Origin: Candidatus Tayloriibacteriota bacterium
GTDB taxonomy: Bacteria; Patescibacteriota; Minisyncoccia; Phycocordibacterales; PALSA-1337
DNA length: 64,000 nucleotides
Direction: 5' to 3'
Assembly (NCBI GenBank): GCA_003151615.1
Contig: PLXZ01000001.1
Location: 134,544-198,543, forward strand
Part shown: positions 1 to 28,794 of the stretch, piece by piece
Layout: each line of letters begins with the position of its first letter
How positions within the stretch are numbered: the first letter of the stretch is position 1
Notes under the pieces: model-generated
Told to the model about the DNA's origin: nothing
Database searches by the model: none
What the model saw: the letters and a program-made list of their open reading frames with translations, nothing else
Program-made: the position numbers and the translations under genes

Positions 1-105
1 CAGTTTCTCTTGTTCTTTTTTGTATGTGTCCAATGCCATATAAATGTGGCTTTATTCTAGGACGTTTAACCCCACTTTGCAAGTTGTGCGATCTTTTTTG
101 ATGCT

Positions 106-777
106 CTAATTTATCGGCTCGCGATAGGGGTCTATTTTTGACGTGGAAGCTATTGCTGGAGCCGAAGAAGGTGTGGCAGCCACGTTTGTCGGGGCAGATT
201 TTATGACCGTTTCGTTTACACTTGTCGAAGTTCCCGTCAAAAGTCTGTCCACAAATGCCGGCGGATTTTCAATGGCGTCGAGGGTTGCAGCTTTAGATAT
301 CTGAGGACTTGTAGACTGATTCGCGGAAACGACGTCTTCCGAAGCTCCGCTTTTTTCAACGCTGATGTTGCCGGCTTTGGCGAGATCAGTATTTTCATCC
401 GATTCTTTGGAATCTTCTTCGTCTTCGTGTGAGGTTAACTCTTCAAGAGTTTTTCTGATACTGCCGAGAATTTCGGTATTTACGTCTGCACCAAGTTTTG
501 TGGCCGTTTCCCTGCTTAATTCCGCGTTTTTGACGAGATTGTCGATATAGTCAGCTGGCTTCTCCAGACCAAGCATTACCAAAAGCGTCTCGGTTTGCAG
601 ATTTCCCGATTGGTCTATGCGTAAGGAATATTTTTTCGACAGCTGATCGAATTTATCAGTCAAGTCCGTTGCTGTTATAGCTTTTTGAACCTCAAGCGGA
701 AGTTCCTTGAATCGGGCTTTTATGATGTCTTGTGTGTTGTCTGGGTTCATTTTTTTATTTTTTATCTGCATCCGCAT
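106..777 (-). CDS. Hypothetical acidic protein; last gene of a four-gene minus-strand operon
   Basis: 223-aa ORF with a D/E/S-rich centre. Its start overlaps the stop of the upstream TrbL-like gene (755..777), which suggests translational coupling. No motif I recognise. Confidence 0.4.
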   Translation of the reverse strand: MRMQIKNKKMNPDNTQDIIKARFKELPLEVQKAITATDLTDKFDQLSKKYSLRIDQSGNLQTETLLVMLGLEKPADYIDNLVKNAELSRETATKLGADVNTEILGSIRKTLEELTSHEDEEDSKESDENTDLAKAGNISVEKSGASEDVVSANQSTSPQISKAATLDAIENPPAFVDRLLTGTSTSVNETVIKSAPTNVAATPSSAPAIASTSKIDPYREPIN

Positions 778-2575
778 CCTTCTTTTCTGGTTCTAATTCT
801 TTCTTCAGATCATCGAAGAGTTTATCTTTCTTGTTTTTGTTAAGGCCTTTCAATATGTTTCGTGTTGCATCTTTTCGGGCTTTTCTCGTTACGAGATTTG
901 GACCTTTCTGAAGATTTTTTGCGTATTGCTCCTGGTATATCTTTTTTACATCGTCTTCCTTCTCGTTATCTGTCCTATTGAGTTTCGCTTTCAAATCATC
1001 AGCTTTCTTCTGGGCGTCCAGAGCTCTTTTTTCAAGCCTGTCTTGTTCAGCGGGCGTAAGTTTTGCCAAATCGCCAGCTTTATCGTATACATCAGTAGCT
1101 TCCTGTTGGGCTTCCGCAATTCTTTTGCGAAGATCATTATTGTATATATCATAGTGTTTGCGGGTAAGCTGATCGCCAGTAAGTTCAAGTGATTTCGCAA
1201 CATCTTGATGGGCTTTTGAATATTTTTTAGTTCTTTCATCAAAACCGCCTTTTGTACTTCCGAAAGATGAACCAGCAATACCTTTAAATCCTTGAGAGGC
1301 ATATGTTCCAAGGAAAGTATGTTCTTTGGCGAATCTTTTGAATCTTTCCGATTCGCCAACGGCCGAAGCGGCTCGTCCAAGTGTATGTTGTGCATATACT
1401 CCCGGTCCGATGACACCCTGTCCCCACTTCGAAACTTTCTTCATCATGTCTCCGACAAAGTCAGCGCCTTCACTCGCGATTGATATTGCGGCGGCGAGCG
1501 GGGCATTGATGAGGAAAATGGCAATAATATATTGCAAAACTATACCGATGGTATGCGGTCCGATAAGAGCTCCGCCCACGCCGCCGGTAATGTTTGCGCC
1601 ACTCGGTGCAACTTTGGCAAAATCAAAGAAATGCGGATCATTAAGCACACTCATGGCGACATACATGAGAAGCAGATAGACCGGCATAAATATGCACATC
1701 GCATACAACATCCCCGTCCATTTTTTTCTGTATTTCTCCAAATCCGGAAATATCATACCGATAAAAAGAATTGGTGAAAAAGCCATGAGTAGGATGAGCA
1801 CGCCGATCCGAACAGCGAATGCGATAGCCGCCGCCAAAAAAGAGGTAGTTGCACCAGCCATTAGAATCACCGCTCCTACGTTAGATAGAGTTATATCCTT
1901 ATCCGTGAATGTTTCTGTAGCATCTCCTACTCCATTTGAAGATGCTGAATTTGCAAACGATTGAATATCAAGACTTTGCATGAAAACATTCGAGAGTCCG
2001 CCGTCGTCAAATGCGTCTGATACAAGTCCTACCAATGATCCCGCTCCGCTGTTCGAGGCGTTAACGGTAGTATTCGTCTGTCCTAATCCTGTTGGCGCTA
2101 TTGCGCTGTAAAACGAGAGTGAAATGATGTTTGAACCGTCGACCGCCAGTTTCGTGAAAAAGAGACTGAAGTTGATGAGGAGTCCAGCAATAACGATATT
2201 TTTTATAAGCTTTCCGATACCTGAACCAATGCCCAGAATCATTCGTATGGATGCGTCAAGGAGCAGGAATATAATGAATACGCTTCCGAAATCGCGGATA
2301 GTCGTCCATGCAATTCCGATCGCCGGAGTGTTGTTGACGATTTGCGACATGTTGAGTGTCGCCGTCATTGTGGCGTTGAGTAGACTGCCGACGATAGTCA
2401 GTCCGGAACCGGCTAATGTTACAAGAAATTCAGTAAAGTAAGCCAGGAATTTCCAAAAAACATCGCTTGCGAAATTAGTAATAAAATCTGCAAACGCCGG
2501 ATGCGGAACAACTGCCGCCAAAATCGGAATGACGGCGACCAGTGAAGCTATGATTTTTTTCGACCTTTGTTTCAT
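755..2575 (-). CDS. Polytopic membrane protein, TrbL/VirB6-like (T4SS/conjugation inner-membrane component), with a charged coiled-coil C-terminal tail
   Basis: 606 aa. N-terminal signal/TM segment, then at least six hydrophobic helices rich in G/A/I/L. The C-terminal ~200 aa is K/E/D-rich (KKADDLKAKLNRTDNEKEDDVKK). The architecture resembles TrbL/VirB6. The family call is inference from composition and topology only. Confidence 0.4.
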   Translation of the reverse strand: MKQRSKKIIASLVAVIPILAAVVPHPAFADFITNFASDVFWKFLAYFTEFLVTLAGSGLTIVGSLLNATMTATLNMSQIVNNTPAIGIAWTTIRDFGSVFIIFLLLDASIRMILGIGSGIGKLIKNIVIAGLLINFSLFFTKLAVDGSNIISLSFYSAIAPTGLGQTNTTVNASNSGAGSLVGLVSDAFDDGGLSNVFMQSLDIQSFANSASSNGVGDATETFTDKDITLSNVGAVILMAGATTSFLAAAIAFAVRIGVLILLMAFSPILFIGMIFPDLEKYRKKWTGMLYAMCIFMPVYLLLMYVAMSVLNDPHFFDFAKVAPSGANITGGVGGALIGPHTIGIVLQYIIAIFLINAPLAAAISIASEGADFVGDMMKKVSKWGQGVIGPGVYAQHTLGRAASAVGESERFKRFAKEHTFLGTYASQGFKGIAGSSFGSTKGGFDERTKKYSKAHQDVAKSLELTGDQLTRKHYDIYNNDLRKRIAEAQQEATDVYDKAGDLAKLTPAEQDRLEKRALDAQKKADDLKAKLNRTDNEKEDDVKKIYQEQYAKNLQKGPNLVTRKARKDATRNILKGLNKNKKDKLFDDLKKELEPEKKDADADKK

Positions 2576-2590
2576 TCGCGTTTATATTTA

Positions 2591-4687
2591 TTATTGAATG
2601 TATGAGCCGCCGCTTGCGTTTGTTCCGTACGACGAGTAATTGAAGTTCTGGCATTCCCTGAGCGTCGTATCCGCCTGTTGCTGCATTGGCTGTATCTCCG
2701 ACTGGTAAGTCGACAAATCATTTGCCGATGTCTGGACGGAGGCCGCCGTCGGGAGTGAGCCGGTGCTTGAAAGGTCGCTCAGATCTTGGTTTGGCCCTTC
2801 CAAATCGGACAGACTTTGCGCGTTCGAGGCATCATCGGATATCTGCTGGTATTGCTGAACGGTGCTATCTGCGCCATTAGTTTCATCGGTTATTGCGTTG
2901 ATGAGGGGAGACAGGCTCGTCGAGTCCAGATTTTGAAGAGTGGTTATCTGTCCCTGCATATATGGTATTGCATAAGGGTGCAGCCGTGTCGTTGTAGATG
3001 CGGTTTCCAGAACCTGATAGCAGGAAATTGCATTGTTCAAAGTCGATTCGGCCGTTGTCGCCAGATTCAGGGCGGAATTGTAATTGTTATAAACGGTCTG
3101 CGCAGTGCCGAGATACGGGCTTATGCCGTTGATAATGGTGTCTTGGCTGCTGCTGAAAGACGCCGAATCGGCGCTGTTGATTGATGATTGGAGATAGGAT
3201 TGGCCGCCGCTGGAACTGTGACTCACCGAGGTGAGGCCTTTTTGAAGCGCCATTGTGATAAGCTCCGAGAAAGCCGCGTTGATTATGTCATTGATGCTGT
3301 TGGCAAGTTCCAGATTTTCCGTCGGTACCGCGAGATGTTTGTTCAGTGTCGCCGAAATGACGCTTCCGGGAGTCTGAATGCTGCAGTCCTGGTTCGGGCT
3401 GTCTTCCGCGGCGGTTCCATAAGGGTCATCTGCTCCGCCTGCCGCGACATCGCCGCTGTTTGAATCAGAATTGTCGGAAGCGGAATTATCGCTTGCCGGT
3501 GCCGCCGATATCGAAGACTGTAGTGCACTTATGGAATTCTGCAGATCGGTCTGTTGGCTCTGCTGGCTAGAGAGTTGGTCCTGAAGCGTGTATGACTTGT
3601 TTTTGTTCGTTGAAATTTGATTGCTCAAATCCATGCACATGGAGGAATTCGACAAAATACCCGAGCTGCTAATGCAATTTGAATTGTAATCGTTGGTCTC
3701 GTCGGTGATCTCATACTGATTCGCAGATGTCTGCGACTGGGTGCCCTGTATTTCCTGTTGAAGATTTGCCAATTGTGTTTGCAAATCCTCAACCTGCTGC
3801 TGTTGGGCGGAAGTATCGGTATTGTCTGCGGCAGCGCTCGTATCGTTTGAGGATCCTTCTGTTTCATCAGATCCGTCATTTGCTGAATCCGACGTACTAT
3901 CATCTGAAGGACTCGGCGTACACGATTCCCAGGACAAAAATCCTCCGCCTTGAGAGAGCTCACTTTGTTTTTGTGCTACTTGATTGTTGATTTGCTGTTG
4001 CAACTGGTCTTCGGCATCCAGGTATGCCCCGTTAGGGGTATTATCGGGATTTGTTACAAGGGCCGAAAAAGCCCCCCAGCCGCCCTGGCTGAAATCTCCG
4101 CCGGTAAAGCCCTGAACCGATGGCGTTATGGATACGCCCGCGCTGTTTATGGCGTTTTTGCCGTTTTGTATGATTGTTGAAAGCGTACAGGAATACTGAT
4201 TTTCGCCCCCGCCACCACCACTGCCGTATCCGTCATTTCGTTGTTGTTGTTGGGCAATTGCCAGACGGACCTGAAGGCTGAATGGACTGCAGAGCGATGA
4301 CAATGCCCCGCTCTGCGAAATGAATTGACCCGTTGCCTGGTCGCCGATGTTTTCAAAAAAGGCCGTCGGATTTTGGATAAATGAAGGGTTGCCGTTAAAG
4401 CCTGAATTGATCCAACTTATCACGCTATTGGTTATTTGCATCAAAAGCTGTTTTGCGATTGCCGTTGCAATTTTGTTCAGTACGCTGTTTTCCAGGAATT
4501 GGTCAGTCGTTGCTACGGATGTTATTGCGTTTTCAATGCTGCTCAATGTATTTACTATGCCATTATGAATGTCTTCGACAAGTTCCTGAGCGTGCGCTTT
4601 TTGAGGGACGATGAATCCCGCGGTTGAAAAAACAAGGACAGTGCACGCAATACCCAAGACGATTTTTTTCAAATTATTTTTTTTCAT
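2591..4687 (-). CDS. Secreted S/Q/N/T-rich low-complexity protein, possibly a fibre or surface component
   Basis: 698 aa. Clear signal peptide (MKKNNLKKIVLGIACTVLVFSTAGFIVPQKAHAQ), a Gly run, Q-rich coiled-coil segments and S/D/N-rich tracts. Its stop overlaps the downstream start. Confidence 0.45.
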   Translation of the reverse strand: MKKNNLKKIVLGIACTVLVFSTAGFIVPQKAHAQELVEDIHNGIVNTLSSIENAITSVATTDQFLENSVLNKIATAIAKQLLMQITNSVISWINSGFNGNPSFIQNPTAFFENIGDQATGQFISQSGALSSLCSPFSLQVRLAIAQQQQRNDGYGSGGGGGENQYSCTLSTIIQNGKNAINSAGVSITPSVQGFTGGDFSQGGWGAFSALVTNPDNTPNGAYLDAEDQLQQQINNQVAQKQSELSQGGGFLSWESCTPSPSDDSTSDSANDGSDETEGSSNDTSAAADNTDTSAQQQQVEDLQTQLANLQQEIQGTQSQTSANQYEITDETNDYNSNCISSSGILSNSSMCMDLSNQISTNKNKSYTLQDQLSSQQSQQTDLQNSISALQSSISAAPASDNSASDNSDSNSGDVAAGGADDPYGTAAEDSPNQDCSIQTPGSVISATLNKHLAVPTENLELANSINDIINAAFSELITMALQKGLTSVSHSSSGGQSYLQSSINSADSASFSSSQDTIINGISPYLGTAQTVYNNYNSALNLATTAESTLNNAISCYQVLETASTTTRLHPYAIPYMQGQITTLQNLDSTSLSPLINAITDETNGADSTVQQYQQISDDASNAQSLSDLEGPNQDLSDLSSTGSLPTAASVQTSANDLSTYQSEIQPMQQQADTTLRECQNFNYSSYGTNASGGSYIQ

Positions 4688-5580
4688 TGTGATTTGTAGG
4701 TGAATATGATGCCGGGTTCGTCCGTTGTATACGTAATATGATCAATGGAGAGGGCCGTTTCTATTCCGGTGAAGGCCGTATTCAGATCAGCCGCTCCCTG
4801 CTTGTAAATATTCAAGCCGCCGAGGCTTGTCAGGCCGTCGGAATATGTTTTTTCAAAAGACTGATCGGCGAAAATAAGTTCAGTCAGGGCGTTTACGAAA
4901 GCAAGATGGGTATTCGCAAGCGACGATGGCACGGTGACCGCGAGTTCGCCTTTGAGCATGGCTTGATATTCGGCAATGATCGGATCCAGCTGTTTGAGTT
5001 CGGCGGGGTTGTTGTCGTCCAGACTGCCCTGGACTATGTCCAGCTCGCCCTCATGTTTTATGAAATTCTTCACAAAAGGCAGTCCCGCCGCGTTTCCGTA
5101 TGCCTTTGTCGATGTTGTTCCATTGTCGGCGCTAATTTTTAAATTGCTTGCCGTATAAAGTTTCGGCGAAGGCAAGATTGTGCCGTCGGACAGGACTTCG
5201 CTGCTGACCGCCTGCTGAACCGCCGGGTCGGTCAAATCCTGTCCGGAATTTTGTGCTTGGGCGTATCGCGCGAAAAGATCTTGTCCGAATTTATCGGTCG
5301 GCGTCAGCGGAGTGCGCGATGCCGTTGTTGAAGAGCCGGGATTTTCCCATGACCCCGATACTGCGGTTGAAAGCGTCTTTTCCCAGTTTCCTGCGTAGGA
5401 GATGCCGCCGTTACTTGAGGTCGCAGTTGCCGTTATCGTAGAAAATTGCATGCTGTTTTGTTTATTATCTGCCGAAGCGAAATAGGCCGGGTTTTCATAT
5501 CTCGACACGATGAAAGCCGCCACAATAATGGCAACCGCAATAGCGATCAAAATGATATTTTTTACGCTTAATTTTTGCAC
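4684..5580 (-). CDS. N-terminally membrane-anchored protein, first gene of the T4SS-like operon; probable GTG start
   Basis: The listed ORF (4684..5742) has no ATG before its TM helix (KNIILIAIAVAIIVAAFIV) and would overlap ksgA by about 100 nt. An in-frame GTG at 5580 directly precedes the TM helix. ATGA start/stop overlap with the next gene at 4684-4687. Confidence 0.4.
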   Translation of the reverse strand: MQKLSVKNIILIAIAVAIIVAAFIVSRYENPAYFASADNKQNSMQFSTITATATSSNGGISYAGNWEKTLSTAVSGSWENPGSSTTASRTPLTPTDKFGQDLFARYAQAQNSGQDLTDPAVQQAVSSEVLSDGTILPSPKLYTASNLKISADNGTTSTKAYGNAAGLPFVKNFIKHEGELDIVQGSLDDNNPAELKQLDPIIAEYQAMLKGELAVTVPSSLANTHLAFVNALTELIFADQSFEKTYSDGLTSLGGLNIYKQGAADLNTAFTGIETALSIDHITYTTDEPGIIFTYKSQ

Positions 5581-5639
5581 TGTAATAATTTCAAAGCTTC
5601 CGGTCGGCGATTGGCAAAAGGCTTGAAAAGCTTTGCAAA

Positions 5640-6443
5640 TTATAGCAAATTGGGGGTGGCAATGAAAGACGCTATTTGTCCCCAGTTGTCGAGTGTGATG
5701 TCTTCGGCGCGCGCATTTGACGATATTCCGATTTTGTTCCATATTTTTTCCAAAATCTCTTTTTCAGCCGTTTTTTGAAGGTTTTTTATGAGAACTTTTC
5801 TCTTGTGGGCGAAACCGGCCTTCACAATTGCGAAAAAATGGCTCTCATTAAGGTTATTTTCAATAAAAAAGTCCTTTGAAATCTCGTCAATCAACACCAC
5901 TGCCGAGTCGACTTTCGGTATAGGTCGAAAATGACGCGCCTCCACGGTTTCAACGTAATGCGGCTTTCCGTAAGCTTTGACGCTTATGGACAAGATACTT
6001 TCTTTTTTGTCGGCCGCGATTCTTTTCGCGACTTCTTTCTGAAGCATTAGGACCATTTTTTTTGGCTGGTGTTCCGATTCCAAAAATTTTCTCAGGAATT
6101 CACCAGTAATGTAGTACGGAATGTTTGCCGCGATGACATAGTCGTCGGGCATGTCCTTGATGGGATCAAAATCAAGAATATCTCCGGGGATCAGTTTTAT
6201 TTTTCCGTCCTTTAGTTCCGCCGAATATTTTTCGCGCAAAAAATCGACGGACCGAATGTCCTTTTCAACCGCAATGACCTGCGCTCCTGCTTCCAGAAGC
6301 GCTGAAGTCAAAGCTCCTTTTCCGGGTCCCGTTTCCAATACCATGTCGCCGGCTTTTATCTGCGCTGCATGAATCATCATTCCAGCTACATGCGGCGCGT
6401 GAAGAAAATTTTGTCCGAGAGATTTTTTTGCAATAAAAGACAT
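5640..6443 (-). CDS. rsmA: 16S rRNA (adenine1518/1519-N6)-dimethyltransferase RsmA/KsgA
   Basis: N-terminal KKSLGQNFL motif and a SAM-binding ETGPGKGALT stretch, as in KsgA. 267 aa. Confidence 0.9.
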   Translation of the reverse strand: MSFIAKKSLGQNFLHAPHVAGMMIHAAQIKAGDMVLETGPGKGALTSALLEAGAQVIAVEKDIRSVDFLREKYSAELKDGKIKLIPGDILDFDPIKDMPDDYVIAANIPYYITGEFLRKFLESEHQPKKMVLMLQKEVAKRIAADKKESILSISVKAYGKPHYVETVEARHFRPIPKVDSAVVLIDEISKDFFIENNLNESHFFAIVKAGFAHKRKVLIKNLQKTAEKEILEKIWNKIGISSNARAEDITLDNWGQIASFIATPNLL

Positions 6444-6458
6444 TTTGTATTTTAGATT

Positions 6459-8465
6459 TTAAAAATTTATGAAGAAAGATCTGCGAACGGGTTTGTCCTC
6501 AAAGCTTTCATCAATCAATCCCGGTCCGATGTCCGTTATGAATTGCGACGGAGTATTTACTTTTTGCGAACCGAAAATGGTCCGAATCTGCGCCCACGAC
6601 AGAAAAACTTTTTTTCGAGCGCGCGTTATCGCAACGTAAAAAAGCCGGCGTTCCTCCTCTTCTTCAGCCTGAGTCACCGCGCCTTCGTTCAGGCGCTTGT
6701 GAGGGAATAAATCCTCCTCAAGTCCCGAAATAAAAACATAATCGAATTCCAGGCCTTTTGAGGCATGAACGGTCATGAGCTTCACTGCGTTGTTGTCTTT
6801 TTCAAGCTCGTCCTGATCCGTTGCAAGCGACGCATTCTCCAAAAGTTTTTCCACTGCAGTTATTTTGACGGATTCCGTTTCTGTTCCATTTTTTGTGCCG
6901 GAGTCCGCACCAATTTCGTCGGCAACTGTAACATCTAAAGCATCATATTGAGCGGCTACCGACACCAATTCCCTAAGATTTTCAAGCTTTTCCTGGTCTT
7001 CGGCGGTTCCGTCCTTTAGTGCTTTTTCGAGGCCTGTTTCACGCATTACATACTTAACCAACATCGAAGGAACTTCCGTTTCTGCAACTTTTTTTATACG
7101 GTCGAGCAATGCCAGAAACGCATTCACTTTTGTTTTGAGCGCCGGGCCGAGAGTAGCAGTTTGATTCGCCAAAACCTTCATCATGGTCGCTTTGCCGATG
7201 CCGCGCGGAGGGACATTTATGATTCGCACCATGTCGCCCGCACTTTCCCTGTTCAACGATGCGCGAATAAACGATAAAACATCCTTGACTTCTTTTCTGT
7301 CGAAGAATCGTGTGCCGAGTATCTGATACGGAACTTCATTTTTCAAAAAAGCTTCCTCAAGCGCGCGTGATTGAAAGTTTGCGCGATACAAAATGGCAAT
7401 TTCGCGGGGTTCGGTTTTCCGCGTGCCGTTTTCCAGGGCAATAATGTCCATTATCTGTTCGACGATGGCCTGCGCCTCGTCTGCTTCGGTGTATGTCACG
7501 GTCAAATCAATTTTTTCTCCCTCGCCATTTTTGGTGAACAGCGTTTTGTCGCGGCGAAGTTTGTTTTTTTCAATGACATTGTTCGCCGCTGACAAAATTG
7601 TCTGTGTGGACCGATAATTTTCCTCGAGCAGAATGATTTTTGCCATCGGATAGTCCTTTTCAAAATTCAAAATATTGTGAATCGTCGCTCCGCGCCAGCT
7701 GTAGATGTTCTGGTCGATGTCCCCAACGACGCATATGTTTTTATTTTTTTCCGCAAGTAATTTCACAATGTCATATTGGACCTTGTTGGTGTCCTGATAC
7801 TCGTCGACGTGTATGTATTGCCAGAGCGAGGAATAATATTCGCGGATATCCGCGTGATTTTTCAAAAGAAGCATGGCTTTCAAAAGCAAATCGTCAAAAT
7901 CAAGGGATTTTTCTTTTTTGAGCGTCGCTTCGTATCGGTCCCACACATCAGCCACGACTGTCGAAAAATAATCATGCGCTTTTTCGCGAAAAGCGACGTT
8001 GGTAATCCCGTCTCCTTTTTGCCGCGAAATCGCATTCAAAATAATTCCGGGTTCAAACTGTTTCGGGTCCAAACCGAGACCTTCAACGGCATCTTTGATT
8101 GCCCTTTTCGAATCCGAACGGTCGTAAATGGTGAAATGTCGGGTCAAACCGATTTTGTGGCTCTGTTGCTTGATAATATGGACGCCGAGGGCATGAAAAG
8201 TGCTGACAAAAGGCCGGTCACCCATATAAATCGGTCTGTTAATCGGCATATCCTCAGAAAGGAGTTTATCCACACGTTCCCGCATCTCTTTTGCCGCCTT
8301 ATTTGTAAAAGTTATGGCTAAAATATTTCTCGGGACGACACCCTTTCTTATCAAATTCAGGATTCTATGAGTAACTGTCTTGGTTTTTCCGGCACCTGCA
8401 CCGGCGAGGATGAGAAGAGGGCCTTCGGTGGTTTCCACCGCTTCTTTTTGGCGATCGTTTAACAT
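6459..8465 (-). CDS. UvrD/PcrA/Rep-family ATP-dependent DNA helicase
   Basis: Walker A GAGAGKT near the N-terminus, LAITFTNKAAKEM (motif Ia) and VDEYQDTN (DEYQD box). 668 aa. Confidence 0.9.
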   Translation of the reverse strand: MLNDRQKEAVETTEGPLLILAGAGAGKTKTVTHRILNLIRKGVVPRNILAITFTNKAAKEMRERVDKLLSEDMPINRPIYMGDRPFVSTFHALGVHIIKQQSHKIGLTRHFTIYDRSDSKRAIKDAVEGLGLDPKQFEPGIILNAISRQKGDGITNVAFREKAHDYFSTVVADVWDRYEATLKKEKSLDFDDLLLKAMLLLKNHADIREYYSSLWQYIHVDEYQDTNKVQYDIVKLLAEKNKNICVVGDIDQNIYSWRGATIHNILNFEKDYPMAKIILLEENYRSTQTILSAANNVIEKNKLRRDKTLFTKNGEGEKIDLTVTYTEADEAQAIVEQIMDIIALENGTRKTEPREIAILYRANFQSRALEEAFLKNEVPYQILGTRFFDRKEVKDVLSFIRASLNRESAGDMVRIINVPPRGIGKATMMKVLANQTATLGPALKTKVNAFLALLDRIKKVAETEVPSMLVKYVMRETGLEKALKDGTAEDQEKLENLRELVSVAAQYDALDVTVADEIGADSGTKNGTETESVKITAVEKLLENASLATDQDELEKDNNAVKLMTVHASKGLEFDYVFISGLEEDLFPHKRLNEGAVTQAEEEEERRLFYVAITRARKKVFLSWAQIRTIFGSQKVNTPSQFITDIGPGLIDESFEDKPVRRSFFINF

Positions 8466-8650
8466 GCAAACACTATACCATAATGGTCGATTGACATTTA
8501 AAACCCTACTGATACCCTGTATTAGTAGCTTCCCGATACCTATCGTGTATGACTATAAAATGGCTATACGGAGCCATAATACCACAAAACTGTACCTCTG
8601 AATTACCACCCTGACTGAACTGCCGCCCTTCCGCCCGACCCGTTTCTGTT

Positions 8651-9862
8651 ATGAAATTTTTTTCTCACAATAAAACCAAGCTCCTTTTGCGACCAAAAAC
8701 CTCCTCAAAAGGTCTCTTTGTGCGTATGTTCTCGGCGTATTTCTTTATTTTTAGCCTTATTTTGAATATTTTCGTCAGTCCGGCAGTTGCGCATGCCGGC
8801 TTTTTTTCTTCAATAATTGCCGGAATATCAGGGGGAGTTTCCGATCTTGCGGCTAATCATGCGATGGCTGAAAGCGTTTCAGACGGGTCGTCTTCGCAAA
8901 ATATGAAGTCCGGAAATGACGACAGCAACAGTGTTCTGGTTGCGGCTGTGAATTCGAATCTTGCACCGACAGCCGATTGCTCCGTTCCGGTGACCGATGA
9001 CGATACGATTTCTTCGCAACTTGATCCTTGTTCAGTGGCAACCACGACGAATACGGAAATCAGCACCTATGTTGTCCGTTCCGGCGACACGCTTTCTGAA
9101 ATCGCCAATCTTTTCGGTGTTTCAGTCAACACAATCGTATGGATGAACGATCTTGACCGCGCAGTTCCACTTCAGGCCGGAGAAACTCTCGTTATTCTTC
9201 CTGTCTCGGGAATTCAGTACACGATTAAAAAGGGCGATACCGTTCAAAGCATCGCCACTCATTACGGAGTTGATCAGCAGGATATTCTTCAATATAACGA
9301 TATTGCTTCGAGCACTAGTGTCTTGAACGTCGGCGAAACTGTTATTATTCCCGATGCAACACTCGACGGTTCTCAAATCAATTCTTCCGTGACGGGATCG
9401 GGAGCTAAAACTTCCGGTAGTAAAGGCGGTTCGGTAAAATCGAAATGGGGCGCTCCCGGAACGGAACCGGCGCATAATACCAACGGGCCTTATTATCCCG
9501 GCTATTACATTCTTCCCCTTGCTCACGGCACCGAGACGCAGGGCCTCCATGGTTATAATGCAGTTGACTTAGCTGATCCAAAAGGCACGCCGATATATGC
9601 GGCGGCACAAGGAATTGTAATTATTAGCATAAAAAACGGCGGATGGAACGGAGGTTACGGAAACTATGTAGTCATCAACCATCCTAATGGAACACAGACG
9701 TTGTATGCCCACATGAGCAGGGTCTTTGCCACTAACGGTGAGAGTGTTGCGCAGGGCGAAGAAATTGGCCTCGTCGGAGCAACAGGTGAAGCAACCGGAC
9801 CCCACGTCCATTTCGAAGTTCACGGCGCACGCGATCCTTTTGCGAATCTTACGACCTGGTAG
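8651..9862 (+). CDS. LysM-domain M23 family metallopeptidase (cell-wall hydrolase)
   Basis: Two LysM-like repeats (YVVRSGDTLSEIANLFGVSVNTI and YTIKKGDTVQSIATHYGV). C-terminal M23 signature HMSRV...GEEIGLVGATGEATGPHVHFEV. Confidence 0.85.
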   Translation: MKFFSHNKTKLLLRPKTSSKGLFVRMFSAYFFIFSLILNIFVSPAVAHAGFFSSIIAGISGGVSDLAANHAMAESVSDGSSSQNMKSGNDDSNSVLVAAVNSNLAPTADCSVPVTDDDTISSQLDPCSVATTTNTEISTYVVRSGDTLSEIANLFGVSVNTIVWMNDLDRAVPLQAGETLVILPVSGIQYTIKKGDTVQSIATHYGVDQQDILQYNDIASSTSVLNVGETVIIPDATLDGSQINSSVTGSGAKTSGSKGGSVKSKWGAPGTEPAHNTNGPYYPGYYILPLAHGTETQGLHGYNAVDLADPKGTPIYAAAQGIVIISIKNGGWNGGYGNYVVINHPNGTQTLYAHMSRVFATNGESVAQGEEIGLVGATGEATGPHVHFEVHGARDPFANLTTW

Positions 9863-9869: not shown

Positions 9870-11333
9870 TTAATAATCCCTCTGCCGATACTGGAGCGCT
9901 TCCATGATGTGCTCTTTTTTAATTTCTCTTGACTGCGCCAAATCGGCTATGGTTCGGGCGACGTGAACCGTGCGTACGTAAGCGCGTCCCGATAGATTCA
10001 GTTTTTTCGCCGATTCCGTAAAAAAAGACAAAGCCCGCGGGTTTATTTCTGCGTTACTGTTGCAATTTCTATTAAATAATCGCGCTTGTCTGATCCTACC
10101 CGCCATTAATTTGGATTCGTCAGCAACGGTTTTGTTGGCACCGGTGCCGTTCGAAAATTTTTCATGTTCTATTTTTGAAACCGAAATCCAGATGTCGATT
10201 CTGTCCGCTATCGGTCCGCTTATTTTTTTCCGGTAGCGCACGATTTCCTTTTCCGTGCAGATGCATTTTTTTCCGCCGCATGCACATGGATTCATCGCAA
10301 AAATATATATGCAGTCGGCGGGATAAGTCACTGATTCCTTTGTACGCGTTATGGTGATTTTTTTCTCTTCCATTGGCTGGCGCAGCGAATCAATTGTCCG
10401 CCGGTCGAATTCCGTGAACTCGTCCAGAAAAAGTACTCCCCGATGGGCCAGGGTTATTTCCCCCGGTTTCGGCGATCCTCCGCCGCCGATAATGGCCGAG
10501 TAAGGCGAAGTATGGTGCGGCGCGCGAAACGGCGGACGGGTAATAACTGAAGAGACGCCGGTTATTGAATATATTTCCGTGACTTCCAATACTTCAGCGT
10601 GCGAAAGATTCGGTAAAATTTCAGCAAACGCCTTTGCAAGCATTGTTTTTCCGGTTCCCGGCGGTCCGTACATTGCGACATTATGTCTTCCCGCCGCCCC
10701 AATTTCCAAGGCTCTTTTGGCATGTTCCTGTCCATGAATATCTCCGAAATCAACAGTTTCATCGCTTCGCGGCGCGGTCATTATTCTTGTCCGAGGCCGC
10801 GGTTTAATTTTGTTTTTTCCCGAAATATGCTCTGTTAATTGCAGCAAAGAATTTGTCGGATATATTAAAATGTCCGGTACGAGCGCGGCTTCTTGGGCGT
10901 TTTCAGTCGGTATAAAAGCCGATGCAAAACCTTTTTCCTTTGCCGTCCGTATCATTGCCAGTATTCCGCGCACCGGGTGAACATTCCCTTCGAGCGACAG
11001 TTCCCCTATGAAAATATGTTTGTCAGACTCAAAATTAATACTTCCCGCCGCCGATAAATACCCCACTGCCATGCCAAGATCGAACGCCGTTCCTTCTTTT
11101 CTGATATCTGCGGGGGCAAGGCTTATGACGACCTTCTGATTTCTCTGTTTGGGAGAAACGAATCCTGAATTTTTTATCGCGGCTGATACGCGGTCTTTTG
11201 CCTCTTCAACTGCCCTATCGCCAAGGCCCACAACGGAAAAAGCATGCAATCCGTTTGAAAGATCCACTTCTATCGTCACGATGTCGGCGCGCAGGCCTGA
11301 AACTTGTGCCGCGTATGTTTTTGAAAAACTCAT
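9870..11333 (-). CDS. comM: YifB/ComM family Mg-chelatase-like AAA+ ATPase
   Basis: Lon-protease-like N-terminal domain followed by AAA+ motifs (MYGPPGTGKTMLA, VLFLDEF) and a C-terminal ChlI-like domain. Confidence 0.85.
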   Translation of the reverse strand: MSFSKTYAAQVSGLRADIVTIEVDLSNGLHAFSVVGLGDRAVEEAKDRVSAAIKNSGFVSPKQRNQKVVISLAPADIRKEGTAFDLGMAVGYLSAAGSINFESDKHIFIGELSLEGNVHPVRGILAMIRTAKEKGFASAFIPTENAQEAALVPDILIYPTNSLLQLTEHISGKNKIKPRPRTRIMTAPRSDETVDFGDIHGQEHAKRALEIGAAGRHNVAMYGPPGTGKTMLAKAFAEILPNLSHAEVLEVTEIYSITGVSSVITRPPFRAPHHTSPYSAIIGGGGSPKPGEITLAHRGVLFLDEFTEFDRRTIDSLRQPMEEKKITITRTKESVTYPADCIYIFAMNPCACGGKKCICTEKEIVRYRKKISGPIADRIDIWISVSKIEHEKFSNGTGANKTVADESKLMAGRIRQARLFNRNCNSNAEINPRALSFFTESAKKLNLSGRAYVRTVHVARTIADLAQSREIKKEHIMEALQYRQRDY

Positions 11334-13776: not shown

Positions 13777-14808
13777 TTGCGGGGTATACTTATTATTATG
13801 TCGCACAATATCGCTCAATCCGTAAAAAAGAGTTCCGAAATTGAACGATTGAAAACTGAATTTCTCCAATATGTTGAGATAGAAAAAGGCCGGAGCCTGA
13901 GCACGGTTTCAAACTATGATCATTACCTTTCGCGTTTTTTAGACAATACGGGCATAAAAAAGCCGGAGGAGGTTACCGACGATCTTGTCCGAAATTTTCG
14001 TCTGTGGCTCAACCGGCAGACTTCAATAGCCGAAAAAGGCCAAGCCCCGACGGCGATGAAGAAAAAAACCCAGAATTATTATCTGATTGCCCTACGTTCT
14101 TTTTTGAAATATCTTGCTCGTCGCGGCGTGACTTCCCTGCCGCCTGACAGGATTGAACTGGCAAAAGTTCCGGAACGGTCCCTCGATCTCATTTCCGCTG
14201 AGGATTTAAGGCGTCTTTTTACCGCTCCCGACCTTTCAACACTTCGCGGATTGCGCGATAAAGCCATATTGGAACTGCTTTTTTCGACGGGACTGCGCGT
14301 TTCCGAATTGTGCGGTTTGTCCCGCGATCTGAACATTCATCACGATGAATTTTCAGTCCGCGGCAAGGGCGATAAAATCCGGGTCGTTTTTCTTTCCAAT
14401 GACGCGCGCCAGGCGGTTAAAACATATTTGGCAAAACGCGAGGATATGGATGACGCTCTTTTCGTCCAAATTTTAAAGGAAAAAAAAGAAGGCAATACCG
14501 GCAAAGGAGGAGGAAGTACTCAAAAATTGGCGCAAAATAAAGATTCTCTTCGTCTCACTTCCCGATCAGTTGAAAGAATTTTGAAATTTTATGCGGTAAA
14601 GGCCGGTATTTCCAAAAAAGTCACTCCTCACGTCATCAGACACTCGTTTGCCACGGATCTGTTGAGAAATGGGGCTGATTTACGATCCGTGCAGATGCTT
14701 TTGGGTCATGCCAACATAGCTACAACGCAGATTTATACCCATGTTACCGATACCGAGCTCCGAAATGTCCATAAAAAGTTCCACAACAAGAATCACGACA
14801 ATAAATAG
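13777..14808 (+). CDS. Tyrosine site-specific recombinase, XerC/XerD family
   Basis: C-terminal catalytic region HVIRHSFATDLL...LLGHANIATTQIYTHV (R..H..R..Y) and an N-terminal SAM-like domain. An alternative start is at 13798 (MSHNI). Confidence 0.85.
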   Translation: MRGILIIMSHNIAQSVKKSSEIERLKTEFLQYVEIEKGRSLSTVSNYDHYLSRFLDNTGIKKPEEVTDDLVRNFRLWLNRQTSIAEKGQAPTAMKKKTQNYYLIALRSFLKYLARRGVTSLPPDRIELAKVPERSLDLISAEDLRRLFTAPDLSTLRGLRDKAILELLFSTGLRVSELCGLSRDLNIHHDEFSVRGKGDKIRVVFLSNDARQAVKTYLAKREDMDDALFVQILKEKKEGNTGKGGGSTQKLAQNKDSLRLTSRSVERILKFYAVKAGISKKVTPHVIRHSFATDLLRNGADLRSVQMLLGHANIATTQIYTHVTDTELRNVHKKFHNKNHDNK

Positions 14809-17558: not shown

Positions 17559-17605
17559 GGTAGCATCAATTTTAAAAAAATGATATTATACTGCTACATA
17601 ACAAT

Positions 17606-18319
17606 ATGGATAAGGTACAATTAAGATTTAGGGCTCTACAATTGAGGGAATTGGGATTCTCATATGGCGAGATTTTGAAGGAAGTAAAAGTTTCCAAAAG
17701 CACTTTGGCATACTGGCTGAAAGGAATACCACTCGACGAACAGCAGGCGGCGCTTCTTAAATCACGATCGATCGAAAAGCAAAAACGTGGAAGATTTTCC
17801 ACTTCCATTGCTTTGCGGGCGCGAAAAGTCTATCGCGAAAAAGCCGCCTACGACGATGCAGAGAAGGGATTCAAATTGCATTGCGGTGAATCCTTCTTTA
17901 TGTCGGGAATATCCCTCTACTGGGCGCATGGAGGCAAGAAGAGCGGTTACTTTCAGTTCGTGAGCGCCGATCCTGAAATGATTGCATTCATGGTCAGTTG
18001 GGCGGAAAAATATCTTCTTGTTCCGCATGCTATGTCGAAAAAAGAAATCAAATTCCGTCTTTTTGTCCATGAGCCAAATAAAGGCTCTAATATTGAGGAT
18101 TTTTGGGCTAAAAGTCTTTCCGTCAAGAAGGACATGTTTAAAATGACTAAAATAAAGGGCAGGGGAATGCAGAATAATCCCAATTATAAAGGTTCTTGCA
18201 TGATTGCCATAACAAATATGGCTTTGTTGAGAAGGGTTTTAGCTTGGCAAAACCAGTTAATCAAGTATTATAAGGACATAGACAAAAAAGCAGTGTCTCA
18301 AACCGAAACGCACCCGTAG
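17606..18319 (+). CDS. Hypothetical protein with an N-terminal helix-turn-helix
   Basis: 237 aa. The N-terminus LRELGFSYGEILKEVKVSKSTLAYWLKG looks like a resolvase/sigma-4-type HTH. The rest is unrecognised; a YWAHGGK stretch weakly resembles LAGLIDADG, and I do not assert that. Its 3' end overlaps the tRNA-Arg start by about 10 nt. Confidence 0.35.
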   Translation: MDKVQLRFRALQLRELGFSYGEILKEVKVSKSTLAYWLKGIPLDEQQAALLKSRSIEKQKRGRFSTSIALRARKVYREKAAYDDAEKGFKLHCGESFFMSGISLYWAHGGKKSGYFQFVSADPEMIAFMVSWAEKYLLVPHAMSKKEIKFRLFVHEPNKGSNIEDFWAKSLSVKKDMFKMTKIKGRGMQNNPNYKGSCMIAITNMALLRRVLAWQNQLIKYYKDIDKKAVSQTETHP

Positions 18320-18381
18320 TGAAATGGATATCACATCGGTCTTCGGAACCGCTATTGGGGGTTCGAATCCCTCCGGGTGCA
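18310..18381 (+). tRNA. tRNA-Arg (anticodon TCG)
   Basis: Manual cloverleaf fold. Acceptor GCACCCG/CGGGTGC, T-arm GGGGG-TTCGAAT-CCCTC, anticodon loop CTTCGGA. One mismatch in the anticodon stem. No encoded CCA. Confidence 0.7.
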
Positions 18382-18459
18382 CACGTGATTTTGCAATAAA
18401 ACGAGGGGAATTTCTGGCGGAAAAAAGGAAGTTCTGTTAGAATAGTTTTCACTGACATT

Positions 18460-18530
18460 GCGGGCATGGTTTAGTGGTAGAACACGTCCTTGCCAAGGAC
18501 GAGACGGGAGTTCGATTCTCCCTGCCCGCA
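18460..18530 (+). tRNA. tRNA-Gly (anticodon GCC); CCA encoded at 18531-18533
   Basis: Acceptor GCGGGCA/TGCCCGC, anticodon stem CGTCC/GGACG with loop TTGCCAA, T-loop TTCGATT. Confidence 0.85.
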
Positions 18531-18750
18531 CCATCGAAGGTCTCGAAAAGCCATATTTATGGCTCAAAAATTGTCAGAAATAGATGTGAATAACTGTGCA
18601 TAACTCTGGGGATTACGTTGATAAAAGACAAAAAATATGGCCTATATTCATAAGGTCAAAATTTGATTTTTTCTTGATTTCCATCACTTTTAGGCTTATA
18701 TAGAGCCATATTTATTCAAAAAGACATAATTTTATCAAAACTTTATCCCC

Positions 18751-19131
18751 ATGGTTCAAAATTCACGTCAAAAAGGGAATATCGGGGAAGAAATTGCATG
18801 TCGGTTTCTCGTGAAACGCGGCTATAAAATTGTAGCCAGAAATTACCTGAAGAAATGGGGTGAGATAGATATTGTCGCTACAAAAAATAGCGGGATTCAT
18901 TTTATTGAAGTGAAAAGTGTGACGAAGAAAAGATCAGAGACAGGAGGTTATAATCCGGAAGAAAATGTCCATGTCCTTAAACAGAGGAGATTGCGGCGCG
19001 TCATTCAGACATACTTTTTGGAAAAGAGGATCGGTCTTGGCGTCGAATTTAAATTTCATGTCATTGTCGTGTACATGGACATGAAAACTCGCCGCGCGAG
19101 TGTCTCATTCATTGAAAATGTCATTCTGTAG
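18751..19131 (+). CDS. yraN: YraN-family (UPF0102) predicted endonuclease
   Basis: 126 aa with GEEIACRFLVKRGYKIVARNY...GEIDIVA...IHFIEVK, the YraN signature. Confidence 0.75.
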   Translation: MVQNSRQKGNIGEEIACRFLVKRGYKIVARNYLKKWGEIDIVATKNSGIHFIEVKSVTKKRSETGGYNPEENVHVLKQRRLRRVIQTYFLEKRIGLGVEFKFHVIVVYMDMKTRRASVSFIENVIL

Positions 19132-19231
19132 CTTATTTTATGGAATTTTTAGCGGTCGTATGCTAGGATAGGGAGGTTCTCAATTTTTGTTTCGCAGGCT
19201 TTTTCCGGGCGATTTTTGAAAATAATAATAT

Positions 19232-19304
19232 CGGAGCGTGGTGTAACGGCTAACATCCCTGTTTTGGGAACAGGTGACTCCGGGTTCGAATCCCGGCGCT
19301 CCGA
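19232..19304 (+). tRNA. tRNA-Pro (anticodon TGG); CCA encoded at 19305-19307
   Basis: Acceptor CGGAGCG/CGCTCCG, anticodon stem CCTGT/ACAGG with loop TTTGGGA, T-arm CCGGG-TTCGAAT-CCCGG. Confidence 0.85.
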
Positions 19305-19337
19305 CCAGTGTCCAAGTAGTTTTAAAGTTAAATAATT

Positions 19338-19408
19338 GCGGGACTAGTTTAATGGTAGAATAGGAGTTTTCCAAACTCTTGGTGGGAGTTCGATTCTCCC
19401 GTCCCGCA
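19338..19408 (+). tRNA. tRNA-Gly (anticodon TCC)
   Basis: Acceptor GCGGGAC/GTCCCGC, anticodon stem GGAGT/ACTCT with loop TTTCCAA, T-loop TTCGATT. Ends 2 nt before the next ATG. Confidence 0.85.
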
Positions 19409-19410
19409 CT

Positions 19411-27697: not shown

Positions 27698-28786
27698 ATG
27701 AACAAAAAAACGATTTGGTCTATGACTGCTTTTATCCTTGTAATAACTGTAGTTATTTTGTTTTATTTTTCCAGAAATTCTTCGTCTAATCTAACAGTCA
27801 AACTTGGTGTAATTGCAGGAACGACTGGCCAGTACGCTCCAGCGGGTGAGGGATATATGAAAGGTTTTAATCTTGCTCTTGATCAATGGAATAATTCTCA
27901 CATTCAAAAATTCTCGACGATCGTCGAAGACGACGGTTTCGATGCGGTCAAAGGTCTTGCCGCCTATCAGAAATTAAGTTCGATTGATAATGTAGATGCT
28001 TATGCTATCGTGTCGTCATTTACCATCGACGCTGTGTATGATCTTGTTCACAAAGAAGATAAGCCTGTGGCTTTAGGATTTGAACAAAGTAAGCCAGCTG
28101 AAGATGATAATATTTTCCAAGTTTTACCCGCGGCCGAACCCGTCGAGTCAGCTCTAGGACAAAAAGTAAAACAGTTGGGATATAGCAAACCAATCGCTGC
28201 GGTAAGTAACAACACTTCGGTGTATCAAAATTTCTATACTGGGTTCAGTGCCGGTTTTGGTGTGAGTGTTCAGAAATTCGAAATCAACAGTGACATAGGC
28301 AGTATTAGATCACAGGCTCTTGCTATTGTTGCCGCTAAGCCTGATGTCGTAGTATTTTTTACAGCACCGCAAGATGGAGCGCAACTCGTGAAGGAGATTC
28401 TCCGTATTACGACGTCGACAAATCGGCCATACTTTGTCTTTGATCAAGATGTTCAATCTGGTTCTACTGATTATCAGACGATCCTCGGTTCTGATATCAA
28501 CAAGATTGATGGTAGTCTTGTGGCTATGTCGAAGAATGATTTTACTTCTGATTTTACTCAGGCATATACGGCAAAATACAACGAGACCCCTCCATTTGGC
28601 TCTGATATGGGATATAACTCTTTCCTATTGCTGGCAACTACTTATGATAAAAATTCGCAGACATGGATCGATAATATGAAGAAAGTAAGTTTCACAGGAG
28701 CAGATGGTAATGTGTCATTTGATTCGGTAGGGTTGAGGGTCCCAAACGTCTATTTTGGAAAATTACAAGGTGGAAAAGTAATTTAA
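27698..28786 (+). CDS. Second Liv-type substrate-binding-protein paralogue
   Basis: N-terminal TM anchor, then VKLGVIAGTTGQYAPAGEGYMKGFNLAL. Periplasmic-binding fold by analogy with 24760..25875. Confidence 0.55.
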   Translation: MNKKTIWSMTAFILVITVVILFYFSRNSSSNLTVKLGVIAGTTGQYAPAGEGYMKGFNLALDQWNNSHIQKFSTIVEDDGFDAVKGLAAYQKLSSIDNVDAYAIVSSFTIDAVYDLVHKEDKPVALGFEQSKPAEDDNIFQVLPAAEPVESALGQKVKQLGYSKPIAAVSNNTSVYQNFYTGFSAGFGVSVQKFEINSDIGSIRSQALAIVAAKPDVVVFFTAPQDGAQLVKEILRITTSTNRPYFVFDQDVQSGSTDYQTILGSDINKIDGSLVAMSKNDFTSDFTQAYTAKYNETPPFGSDMGYNSFLLLATTYDKNSQTWIDNMKKVSFTGADGNVSFDSVGLRVPNVYFGKLQGGKVI

Positions 28787-28794
28787 TTCTTACC

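Follow-up and report, generated by a model that had tools for sequence, protein, structure and literature searches.

The four minus-strand genes at positions 106-5580 of the window, by which is meant the whole 64,000-nucleotide stretch of DNA analysed, open a conserved chromosomal T4SS operon of the type found in the ultra-small CPR/Patescibacteria. It is probable that the locus is the start of the Patescibacteria chromosomal T4SS, that the four products (g1-g4) act as parts of it, and that the resultant apparatus is a pilus-like contact machine rather than one devoted to conjugation. Systems of this kind were described in 2023-2025, and the window locus is not of a new kind; as judged by sequence, three of the four products (g1, g2 and g4) are without recognisable relatives of known function. 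The relevant features are as follows.

4684-5580, minus strand: g1, GTG start, 298 aa, single-pass membrane protein, first gene of the T4SS operon
4684-4687, minus strand: ATGA stop/start overlap of g1 and g2, from sequence inspection
2591-4687, minus strand: g2, open reading frame of 698 aa, secreted protein
755-2575, minus strand: g3, 606 aa, 'extended' VirB6/TrbL-like polytopic membrane protein
106-750, minus strand: g4, acidic protein, 214 aa from a start at 750 (221 aa from 771, 223 aa from 777)
1-39, minus strand: first 13 codons of g5, as called and translated on the source contig (L001 12537-13652)

All four open reading frames listed in an earlier note on this DNA were present on the minus strand, and the ATGA overlap it described could be read directly from the sequence. 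The g2-g3 junction consists of a 15-nt spacer with no overlap; the 23-nt overlap at 755-777 that the note had reported was probably a start-codon artefact of choosing the longest open reading frame. The methionine at residue 8 of the g4 reading frame that starts at 771 (ATG, 750-748) is invariant in 35 orthologues, and the closest g4 homologues start at this same residue; for both of these reasons the true g4 start is most likely 750, 4 nt past the g3 stop codon (757-755).

The accompanying proposal of a four-gene operon was correct in part: the junctions are indeed tight, co-oriented and conserved, but the 3′ boundary was wrongly placed, since a fifth gene (g5) starts at window position 39, and gene calls on the source contig extend the operon by some 9 kb past the window, a continuation that had been anticipated. 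A VirB4 gene had similarly been suggested upstream, and one does lie just beyond window position 1, but because the genes are on the minus strand it is located downstream in the operon. The genes encountered beyond position 1 encode PrgI/VirB3, a TrsD/TraC-like protein, the VirB4 ATPase, a protein whose orthologues have a VirB2-like pilin domain (g12) and three more envelope proteins. In operon order, the four after VirB4 are a membrane protein of small size, one that is secreted, g12 and another anchored protein, and the whole block is flanked by rsmA/ksgA and yidC. The genes g1-g4 are the first four of an operon of 11-13 genes, and are neither self-contained nor a remnant. All 13 open reading frames are intact, and the GC content of the cluster in the window (0.43-0.49) is unremarkable for the window. 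Scans of positions 1-8700 returned a promoter count not above shuffled expectation, and no convincing intergenic terminator on the minus strand. The genes g5 (371 aa in full) and g6 (101 aa), inserted as a pair between g4 and prgI, gave zero phmmer matches across 80 other loci and are a lineage-specific insertion.

The earlier note had looked to T4SS or ATPase genes in the neighbourhood for a decision on the T4SS reading, which stands, VirB4, PrgI/VirB3 and TrsD/TraC-like genes all having been found there. The VirB4 protein (615 aa, 4.4 kb past the window edge) matched P-loop_TraG (1.8e-25), AAA_10 (1.8e-10) and DUF87, has both Walker motifs intact in its translation (A, GSGKS; B, DEAW), and has as its closest plasmid relatives the monoderm 'VirB4-like, CD1110 family' ATPases of Clostridium, Bacillus and Streptomyces (33-36% identity). 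A further downstream gene matched PrgI (PF12666, 1.5e-8). The 217-aa protein encoded directly before virB4 was assigned as TrsD-like from a precomputed PF26593 TraC-like match together with its gene position; our own Pfam scan of it gave no match, and one orthologue a weak TraC_F_IV match at 0.07. The T4SS_pilin domain (PF18895) was matched by four of the four g12 orthologues tested (1.8e-6 to 5.7e-3, with one of them exceeding the gathering score); the g12 of the window genome gave no match to this domain at E<=0.1, and is homologous to the matching orthologues (phmmer 1e-17 to 1e-36). No relaxase or T4CP (VirD4/TcpA) was detected among the open reading frames scanned, namely every gene called in the 9-kb extension and, within the 64-kb window, most reading frames of at least 250 aa.

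The block g1-g4 is kept in around 70 related genomes, homologue names including Ca. Taylorbacteria, Paceibacteria and Patescibacteria, which confirms a CPR origin, and nearly all sufficiently long loci from 80 species-representative Paceibacteria exhibited the order g1-g2-g3-g4-PrgI-TrsD-VirB4-g10-g11-g12-g13. Homologues of g3 were flanked on the same strand by g1 in 73, by g2 in 75 and by g4 in 76 of 81 loci, the absences falling mostly at contig ends; the g1 orthologue was immediately upstream of g2 in 73/81, and the g4 orthologue followed g3 in 76/81. Median spacers for the g1-g2, g2-g3 and g3-g4 junctions were 1, 6 and 5 nt respectively, the first of these taken over 70 other loci, and the arrangement is far beyond chance. 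Gene order, strand and few-nucleotide spacers persist in some 70 species-level genomes at protein identities of 30-60%, always between rsmA and yidC, which argues for vertical inheritance under purifying selection. In four out of four loci picked via g2, rsmA and genes of the sizes of g1 and VirB6 were present in unchanged order, and the two contigs that reached downstream (both with the same g2 protein) also carried PrgI, TrsD-like and VirB4 genes. An all-versus-all hhalign comparison among the cluster families gave no internal paralogy.

By its predicted fold, weak matches at the level of the family and its context, g3 is identified as a VirB6-family polytopic subunit, and the TrbL/VirB6-like assignment made in the earlier note, together with the T4SS reading, is supported by these and by the neighbouring T4SS genes. 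At least six hydrophobic segments were apparent from hydropathy; the membrane domain occupies approximately residues 30-385, and the C-terminal tail beyond it, around 220 aa long, is helical, hydrophilic and highly charged (19% K, 13% D, 7% E and 6% R over residues 440-606), so the multi-TM protein with a charged tail described previously was recovered. The tail is inferred to be cytoplasmic solely from the K-rich stretch that follows the last hydrophobic helix. Hydropathy and AF2 helices gave g3 at least five hydrophobic helices alongside co-encoded virB4 and virB3, the combination taken to mark TrbL/VirB6, and the predicted model of its membrane domain has a VirB6 fold at moderate confidence (pLDDT 68). 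The window g3 gave no Pfam TrbL match (PF04610) at E<=1; TrbL was matched by seven of 40 g3 homologues (best E 9.7e-5), some homologues carry a precomputed PF19590, and the family profile returned no match beyond coiled-coil noise when searched against PDB sequences.

The second gene encodes a protein that was previously described as secreted, S/Q/N-rich and coiled-coil-containing, a description borne out by its signal-peptide-like N-terminus, its composition (15.5% S, 10.3% Q, 8.9% N) and a coiled-coil, S/Q/N/D-rich insertion at approximately residues 270-425, which is lineage-specific and missing from orthologues. A conserved N-terminal domain with conserved cysteines (residues ~60-260 plus 430-500) and a C-terminal long-helix bundle (~500-690) make up the remainder, the family invariants in the alignment being W92, N94, G96, D116, C256, C435 and a T439-P-G motif; the family has a median length of 549 aa, and the window copy is its longest member. 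In the AF2 model the C-terminal bundle was predicted with a pLDDT above 90 and the N-domain at around 50, and Foldseek, a weak test given the low confidence of the N-domain, recovered generic helical bundles only (E>=0.3), with no VirB5/TrwJ chain in the best 50 PDB matches. The g2 profile likewise gave no match beyond coiled-coil noise against PDB sequences. Weak matches were recorded to the helical translocators XaxA, AhlC, SipB and HBL-type, and DUF4141 (PF13605) was matched weakly by five of 45 family members (best E 3.2e-6) with a best score of 26.8 bits, under the Pfam gathering score of 30, over residues 18-60 only, that is, some 45 N-terminal residues comprising the signal peptide and first helix; the window g2 itself gave no DUF4141 match. 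In Bacteroides conjugative transposons the DUF4141 protein, which we take to be the TraI of CTnDOT-type elements, is secreted and its gene adjoins the VirB6-like traJ, much as g2 lies beside g3. The slot of the g2 gene, directly upstream of virB6, is that of virB5 in Agrobacterium and of the DUF4141 gene in Bacteroides.

The product of g1 was, as claimed, membrane-anchored, with a single N-terminal hydrophobic segment at residues 1-30 (hydropathy), then an S/T-rich linker and, at the C-terminus, a conserved domain of some 200 aa. At the level of sequence comparison it is an orphan family: profile searches of Pfam, NCBIfam and PDB gave no informative match, and a homologue search returned only 11 close matches, all hypothetical proteins. 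Bacterial TSP3 calcium-binding repeats were detected by Pfam in the linker of seven of 36 orthologues, which is consistent with an extracytoplasmic location. Sequence tests for a VirB8-like identity (single-pass, with an NTF2-like extracytoplasmic domain) were negative (Pfam on 36 members; PDB profile search), as were hhalign comparisons with PrgL and PrgD, although this set-up also missed the known PrgI relationship.

The g4 protein, acidic as previously noted (net charge -11), has no signal peptide and no transmembrane segment. Its conserved N-terminal domain, helical and some 100 aa long, gives way to a middle region of low complexity and then, at the C-terminus, to a DPYRE motif that hardly varies, D214, Y216, R217 and E218 being near-invariant in the alignment. 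The N-terminal domain was recovered from 3155 clusters at 50% identity, 652 of them at E<=1e-10, and is in some cases repeated as two or three tandem copies; g4 gave no Pfam or PDB match, and a Pfam scan of ten multi-copy relatives of the domain returned nothing. For all four window proteins, Pfam and NCBIfam scans were without a significant match.

In the contact machine that we consider the probable identity of this locus, VirB4, anchored by VirB3, would energise assembly on a VirB6 platform in a single membrane. The Sec-exported g2, with its conserved cysteines, and the single-pass g1 could contribute extracytoplasmic parts of a stalk, a section spanning the cell wall or a tip, and g4 may be a cytoplasmic partner of either the charged VirB6 tail or VirB4, these proposed roles being based on position, localisation signals and conservation. 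By analogy with one Saccharibacterium, the machine might build a pilus-like structure for contact-dependent exchange with a host, either exporting protein or taking up host molecules. A more specific version, which is speculative and rather doubtful at present, has g1, g2 and g4 as unrecognised core subunits of the Paceibacteria T4SS, with g2 the counterpart of VirB5/IcmX and g4 a cytoplasmic adaptor. Were this so, a disulfide-stabilised g2 would dock on the VirB6 platform and nucleate or cap the pilus, its long-helix C-terminal bundle perhaps entering the host membrane, an idea prompted by the weak translocator matches, while g4, with a domain found in more than 3000 protein clusters, would stand in for the missing coupling protein.

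An unlikely alternative is a DNA-uptake T4SS resembling H. pylori ComB, which would bring in DNA from the environment or a host, as a source of nucleotides or for transformation, and feed it to ComEC. Near the locus neither T4CP nor relaxase was found, and ComB likewise has none (PMC12857230), the window also carries ComEC (54758-56239), RecJ and ComM-like genes, and according to one survey the ABY1-class T4SS co-localises with comF, recG and radA (PMC12102498). Against this, deletion of comEC in Southlakia epibionticum ends competence and spares viability, whereas its T4SS is essential (PMC12857230; PMC10633639), which indicates that the two are not obligatorily coupled; the window moreover carries all of a type IV pilus set (PilB, PilC and pilins), the usual monoderm route of uptake, and ComB is without the monoderm-type TrsD and PrgI features. 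It is very improbable that g1, g2 and g4 belong to a cell-envelope or adhesin module with no relation to the T4SS genes beside it, with g3 alone concerned with secretion: the three have no significant similarity to any known T4SS component and g2 resembles a generic coiled-coil-rich surface protein, but the VirB6 gene sits between g2 and g4, spacers are of 1-6 nt or replaced by overlaps in about 70 genomes, loci picked via g2 keep their T4SS context, and an embedded virB6 would not be expected to persist across such divergence. Least credible, and dropped on account of the synteny, is the earlier suggestion of a remnant, which would make the locus an integrated conjugative element in decay, its genes drifting as functionless leftovers. 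In its favour, the conjugative ATPases of monoderm plasmids are what VirB4 most resembles, the scanned regions yielded neither relaxase nor coupling protein, and a tyrosine recombinase gene lies 8 kb off at 13777-14808. Against it, the 13 intact reading frames are syntenic across some 70 species, the GC content is unremarkable for the window, housekeeping genes separate them from the recombinase and flank them, tblastn of g2 and g3 gave no match in 72,556 plasmids, and a homologous system is essential in Saccharibacteria (PMC10633639).

Comparison of the T4SS operon with known systems indicated affinities with MPF_FATA (pCF10 Prg/Pcf; pGO1 Trs), namely a CD1110-like VirB4, a PrgI-family VirB3, a TrsD-like protein before VirB4, and a shared lack of outer-membrane core genes. 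By comparison with MPF_FATA, however, the window cluster is without relaxase, T4CP, PrgK-type hydrolase or LPXTG adhesin, clusters of its type carry a pilin domain (in the g12 orthologues) where MPF_FATA has none, and its VirB6, at 606 aa, is more than twice as long as PrgH (266 aa). Alignment by hhalign of all cluster families with single pCF10 Prg/Pcf and Tn916 proteins gave noise-level results that are uninformative, since the known PrgI relationship was also missed (g7 against PrgI, 3.4% probability) and the set-up is insensitive. Sequence identity of g3 to VirB6/TrwI of R388 and to DotA of the Legionella Dot/Icm system was 5-8%; these are diderm systems in which VirB5/IcmX caps a VirB6/DotA pentamer, whereas the window locus has no recognisable VirB5 homologue.

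The closest correspondence was with the Patescibacteria T4SS surveyed phylum-wide by Quinonero-Coronel et al. 2025 (PMC12102498), which comprises VirB4, TrsD, PrgI, VirB6 and VirB2-like pilins, usually without a relaxase, is located in Paceibacteria close to ksgA, dnaA and rnpA, and is related to monoderm conjugation machinery. The window locus shares with it VirB4, a TrsD-like protein, PrgI/VirB3, VirB6 and a monoderm host, may to judge by the g12 orthologues also have a VirB2-like pilin, and is likewise chromosomal, located by ksgA/rsmA and an origin-proximal yidC, with no relaxase or T4CP nearby. Points of difference are that g1, g2 and g4 match no T4SS component named in the available part of the 2025 survey (PMC12102498), that the window genome has the additional g5-g6 insertion between g4 and prgI, and that in the Paceibacteria version one pilin-domain protein, extended at its C-terminus by some 300 aa, takes the place of an array of small pilins. 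Epibiotic growth of the cultivated Saccharibacterium Southlakia epibionticum requires the equivalent system (SEML1_0006-0019; Wang et al. 2023, PMC10633639) and does not require comEC (PMC10633639; PMC12857230). No T4SS had been reported before as essential to the organism carrying it, and the epibiotic lifestyle may have its conduit in the Patescibacteria T4SS. In Paceibacteria the VirB6 gene of this system is invariably embedded among those of three conserved unannotated proteins, one anchored, one secreted and one cytoplasmic, and these (g1, g2 and g4) suggest themselves as candidates to supply the VirB8, VirB5 and coupling functions that are missing.

The block at the start of the window comprises four minus-strand genes, g1 to g4, the open reading frames (ORFs) of which are as follows.

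g1: 4684-5580, minus; ORF of 298 aa with a GTG start, which gene calling on the source assembly also selected
g2: 2591-4687, minus; ORF of 698 aa
g3: 755-2575, minus; ORF of 606 aa
g4: longest ORF 106-777, minus

Composition and hydrophobicity confirmed the earlier note's description of the products as, respectively, a membrane-anchored protein, a secreted S/Q/N-rich protein, a polytopic protein with a highly charged tail, and an acidic protein: g1 has one hydrophobic segment, N-terminal; g2 has a signal-peptide-like N-terminus and contains 15.5% S, 10.3% Q and 8.9% N; g3 has at least six hydrophobic helices and, from residue 440, a tail with 19% K, 13% D, 7% E and 6% R; and the net charge of g4 is -11. 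The reported ATGA overlap of g1 and g2 (4684-4687) is present in the sequence and a 15-nt gap separates g2 from g3, while the reported 23-nt overlap of g3 and g4 (755-777) arises from choosing the longest ORF. In the ORF starting at 771, codon 8 (ATG 750-748) encodes a Met that all 35 orthologues share, and the closest g4 homologues begin there; the true g4 start therefore most likely lies 4 nt past the g3 stop. A fifth gene begins at window position 39 and continues off the window.

The exact g3 protein was located on an ENA/NCBI contig of 562,931 bp, and the locus with its 10-kb flanks (L001; window coordinate = 12576 minus L001 coordinate) has the order uvrD/pcrA, rsmA (ksgA), g1 to g4 and then the genes listed here, followed by yidC on the opposite strand.

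g5: 371 aa, highly charged; between g4 and g6
g6: 101 aa; between g5 and prgI
PrgI/VirB3: after g6; PF12666, 1.5e-8
TraC-like/TrsD-like protein: 217 aa; between PrgI/VirB3 and VirB4
VirB4 ATPase: 615 aa; P-loop_TraG (1.8e-25), AAA_10 and DUF87, with GSGKS and DEAW motifs
g10: 161 aa, membrane protein
g11: 345 aa, secreted
g12: 432 aa
g13: 433 aa, anchored

The VirB4 ATPase suggested to lie beyond the window start is thus present, but downstream in the operon rather than upstream. At L001 14513-17025 the VirB4 function is split between the 217-aa protein, the gene for which ends 11 nt upstream of the next, and the 615-aa ATPase, the first 200 residues of which retain a weak match (6e-4) to the end of the TraC_F_IV model; all related loci keep this split. 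The genes g5 and g6 (window 1-39 plus L001 12537-13979) sit between g4 and prgI in this genome only, phmmer finding no homologues in the 80 related loci described below; the 66 nt separating g4 from g5 contain a pair of sigma-70-like hexamers on the minus strand (window 82..54), and four related loci (L009, L018, L020, L022) carry unrelated insertions at the same spot.

Scanning the g3 family profile against one genome per GTDB species confirmed 213 relatives. The 80 best loci were fetched and, with the own locus, compared as a set of 81 by searching every ORF for the 13 cluster proteins with phmmer. All 80 come from Patescibacteria and carry the labels Ca. Taylorbacteria, Paceibacteria or Parcubacteria, with many 'binchicken' records labelled Saccharibacteria. 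Almost everywhere that contigs suffice, order and strand are the same (rsmA-g1-g2-g3-g4-PrgI-TrsD-like-VirB4-(g10)-g11-g12-g13), with homologues of g1 in 73, g2 in 75, g4 in 76, PrgI in 64, the TrsD-like protein in 61 and VirB4 in 59 of the 81 loci. Median spacers are 1 nt (g1-g2), 6 nt (g2-g3), 5 nt (g3-g4), 1 nt (PrgI-TrsD) and 7 nt (TrsD-VirB4), and loci picked independently via g2 homologues, the most divergent included, displayed the same neighbourhood. With order, strand and spacing kept across loci, the suggestion of a remnant did not hold: the operon has been inherited vertically and is under selection.

The window g3 protein alone gave no match to Pfam TrbL; TrbL (PF04610) was matched by 7 of 40 family members (best E 9.7e-5), and several homologues carry a precomputed PF19590 match. 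In Foldseek, an AF2 model computed on an alignment of 40 sequences (pLDDT 68, with 70-87 in the transmembrane helices) had TrwI/VirB6 chains of the R388 type IV secretion system (T4SS) as its top three PDB matches, the solved VirB6-family structures being DotA and TrwI. Taken with the family-level matches and genomic context, this predicted fold settles g3 as VirB6 at the fold level. Given its charged helical tail of ~220 aa, g3 is an 'extended VirB6' as the 2025 nomenclature review (PMC12857230) uses the term.

The g2 family averages rather less in length (~550 aa) than the window copy, its longest member. The family alignment revealed a conserved N-terminal domain (invariant W92, N94, G96 and D116 plus conserved cysteines) and a conserved C435 ... 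T439-P-G segment; the C-terminal long-helix bundle was modelled at an AF2 pLDDT >90, and the coiled-coil hairpin, with the bulk of the S/Q/N/D-rich sequence, falls in residues ~270-425, a lineage-specific insertion. Pfam, NCBIfam, PDB sequences and PDB folds gave nothing informative, the sole lead being that 5 of 45 members match DUF4141, below threshold, within their first 45 residues; in Bacteroides conjugative transposons the gene for a DUF4141 protein adjoins traJ (VirB6-like). By its sequence, g1 is a single-pass orphan, and the bacterial TSP3 calcium-binding repeats in the linker of 7/36 orthologues are consistent with an outside location. No export signal was found in g4, the C-terminal DPYRE motif of which is nearly invariant among orthologues. 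Its helical N-terminal domain (~100 aa; window 427-750, minus) has 3155 relatives among 50%-identity clusters (652 of them with E<=1e-10), single or in two to three tandem copies in proteins of 200-740 aa. It is covered by no Pfam family and seems to belong to a large domain family not yet described. All three of g1, g2 and g4 are conserved orphan proteins.

The component set, operon structure, VirB6 fold and intact ATPase motifs demonstrated here point to a probable mechanism in which VirB4, held by PrgI and perhaps the TrsD-like protein, drives assembly on the VirB6 platform, with g1 and g2 as putative extracytoplasmic structural parts, g12, the orthologues of which match a pilin domain, polymerised or displayed, and g4 working on the cytoplasmic side; the machine would serve contact-dependent exchange with a host cell, not conjugation. 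A ComB-like DNA-uptake T4SS in this lineage is a less probable reading, disfavoured both by the comEC result from Southlakia, a Saccharibacterium with a studied T4SS (PMC12857230), and by the presence, at other places in the window (42025-46816 and 52122-56239), of a complete set of type IV pilus and ComEC genes.

42025-43779: PilB-like T2SSE ATPase
43804-45021: PilC-like T2SSF
45008-46816: 602-aa protein with N-terminal methylation motif and prealbumin-like domains
52122-53936: RecJ
54758-56239: ComEC

Other features recorded in the window are as follows.

9870-11333: ComM-like Mg-chelatase ATPase
13777-14808: XerC/D-like tyrosine recombinase
24760-25875, 27698-28786, 29514-30731: Peripla_BP_6 binding proteins
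39231-42005, plus: 924-aa protein with BNR/Asp-box repeats, probable surface protein
61472-63154, minus: 560-aa PKD/fn3/purple-acid-phosphatase-N protein, probable surface protein

The three paralogous binding proteins and two BPD_transp_2 permeases make up a Liv-type ABC uptake system (24760-32236), a considerable investment in transport given the genome size, and both surface-protein genes sit in higher-GC stretches (0.54). GC dips to ~0.41 across 16-24 kb; the stretch 17600-24600 is a possible small island of mobile or defence genes and includes a RhuM-family 'virulence protein' (21170-22177; E 1.5e-105), of a kind usually found on islands or prophages.

The T4SS reading of the four-gene block was essentially upheld by VirB4, PrgI, the VirB6 fold and the conserved context. 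In a Saccharibacterium, the T4SS-like cluster SEML1_0006-0019 is essential for epibiotic growth, resembles Gram-positive conjugative systems and has pilins without a recognisable relaxase or coupling protein (Wang et al. 2023, PMC10633639). A phylum survey (Quinonero-Coronel et al. 2025, PMC12102498) describes a Patescibacteria VirB4 clade sister to MPF_FATA, with TrsD, PrgI/VirB3, VirB6 and VirB2-like pilins near virB4, VirB8 mostly undetectable, relaxases rare, and the Paceibacteria locus often near ksgA, dnaA, rnpA and rpmH. A LysM-LysM-Peptidase_M23 cell-wall hydrolase is encoded at window 8651-9862 (plus), and distant relatives (L083, L084 and a JGI contig) keep it in the same neighbourhood, before rsmA on its upstream side; since the same survey associates VirB1-like proteins with M23 and LysM domains with virB4 in Paceibacteria, it may be the peptidoglycan-opening enzyme of the T4SS. 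Scanning most window ORFs of 250 aa or more, and every called gene of the 9-kb extension, revealed no relaxase or type IV coupling protein domain, and g2 and g3 gave no tblastn match in 72,556 plasmids. Because, in addition, the best plasmid relatives of VirB4 are monoderm 'CD1110-family' ATPases (33-36% identity), all four g12 orthologues tested match the T4SS_pilin domain (one above the gathering score), and the locus is flanked by rsmA and yidC, it matches the Patescibacteria T4SS of the literature and is an ordinary further member of an already described kind.
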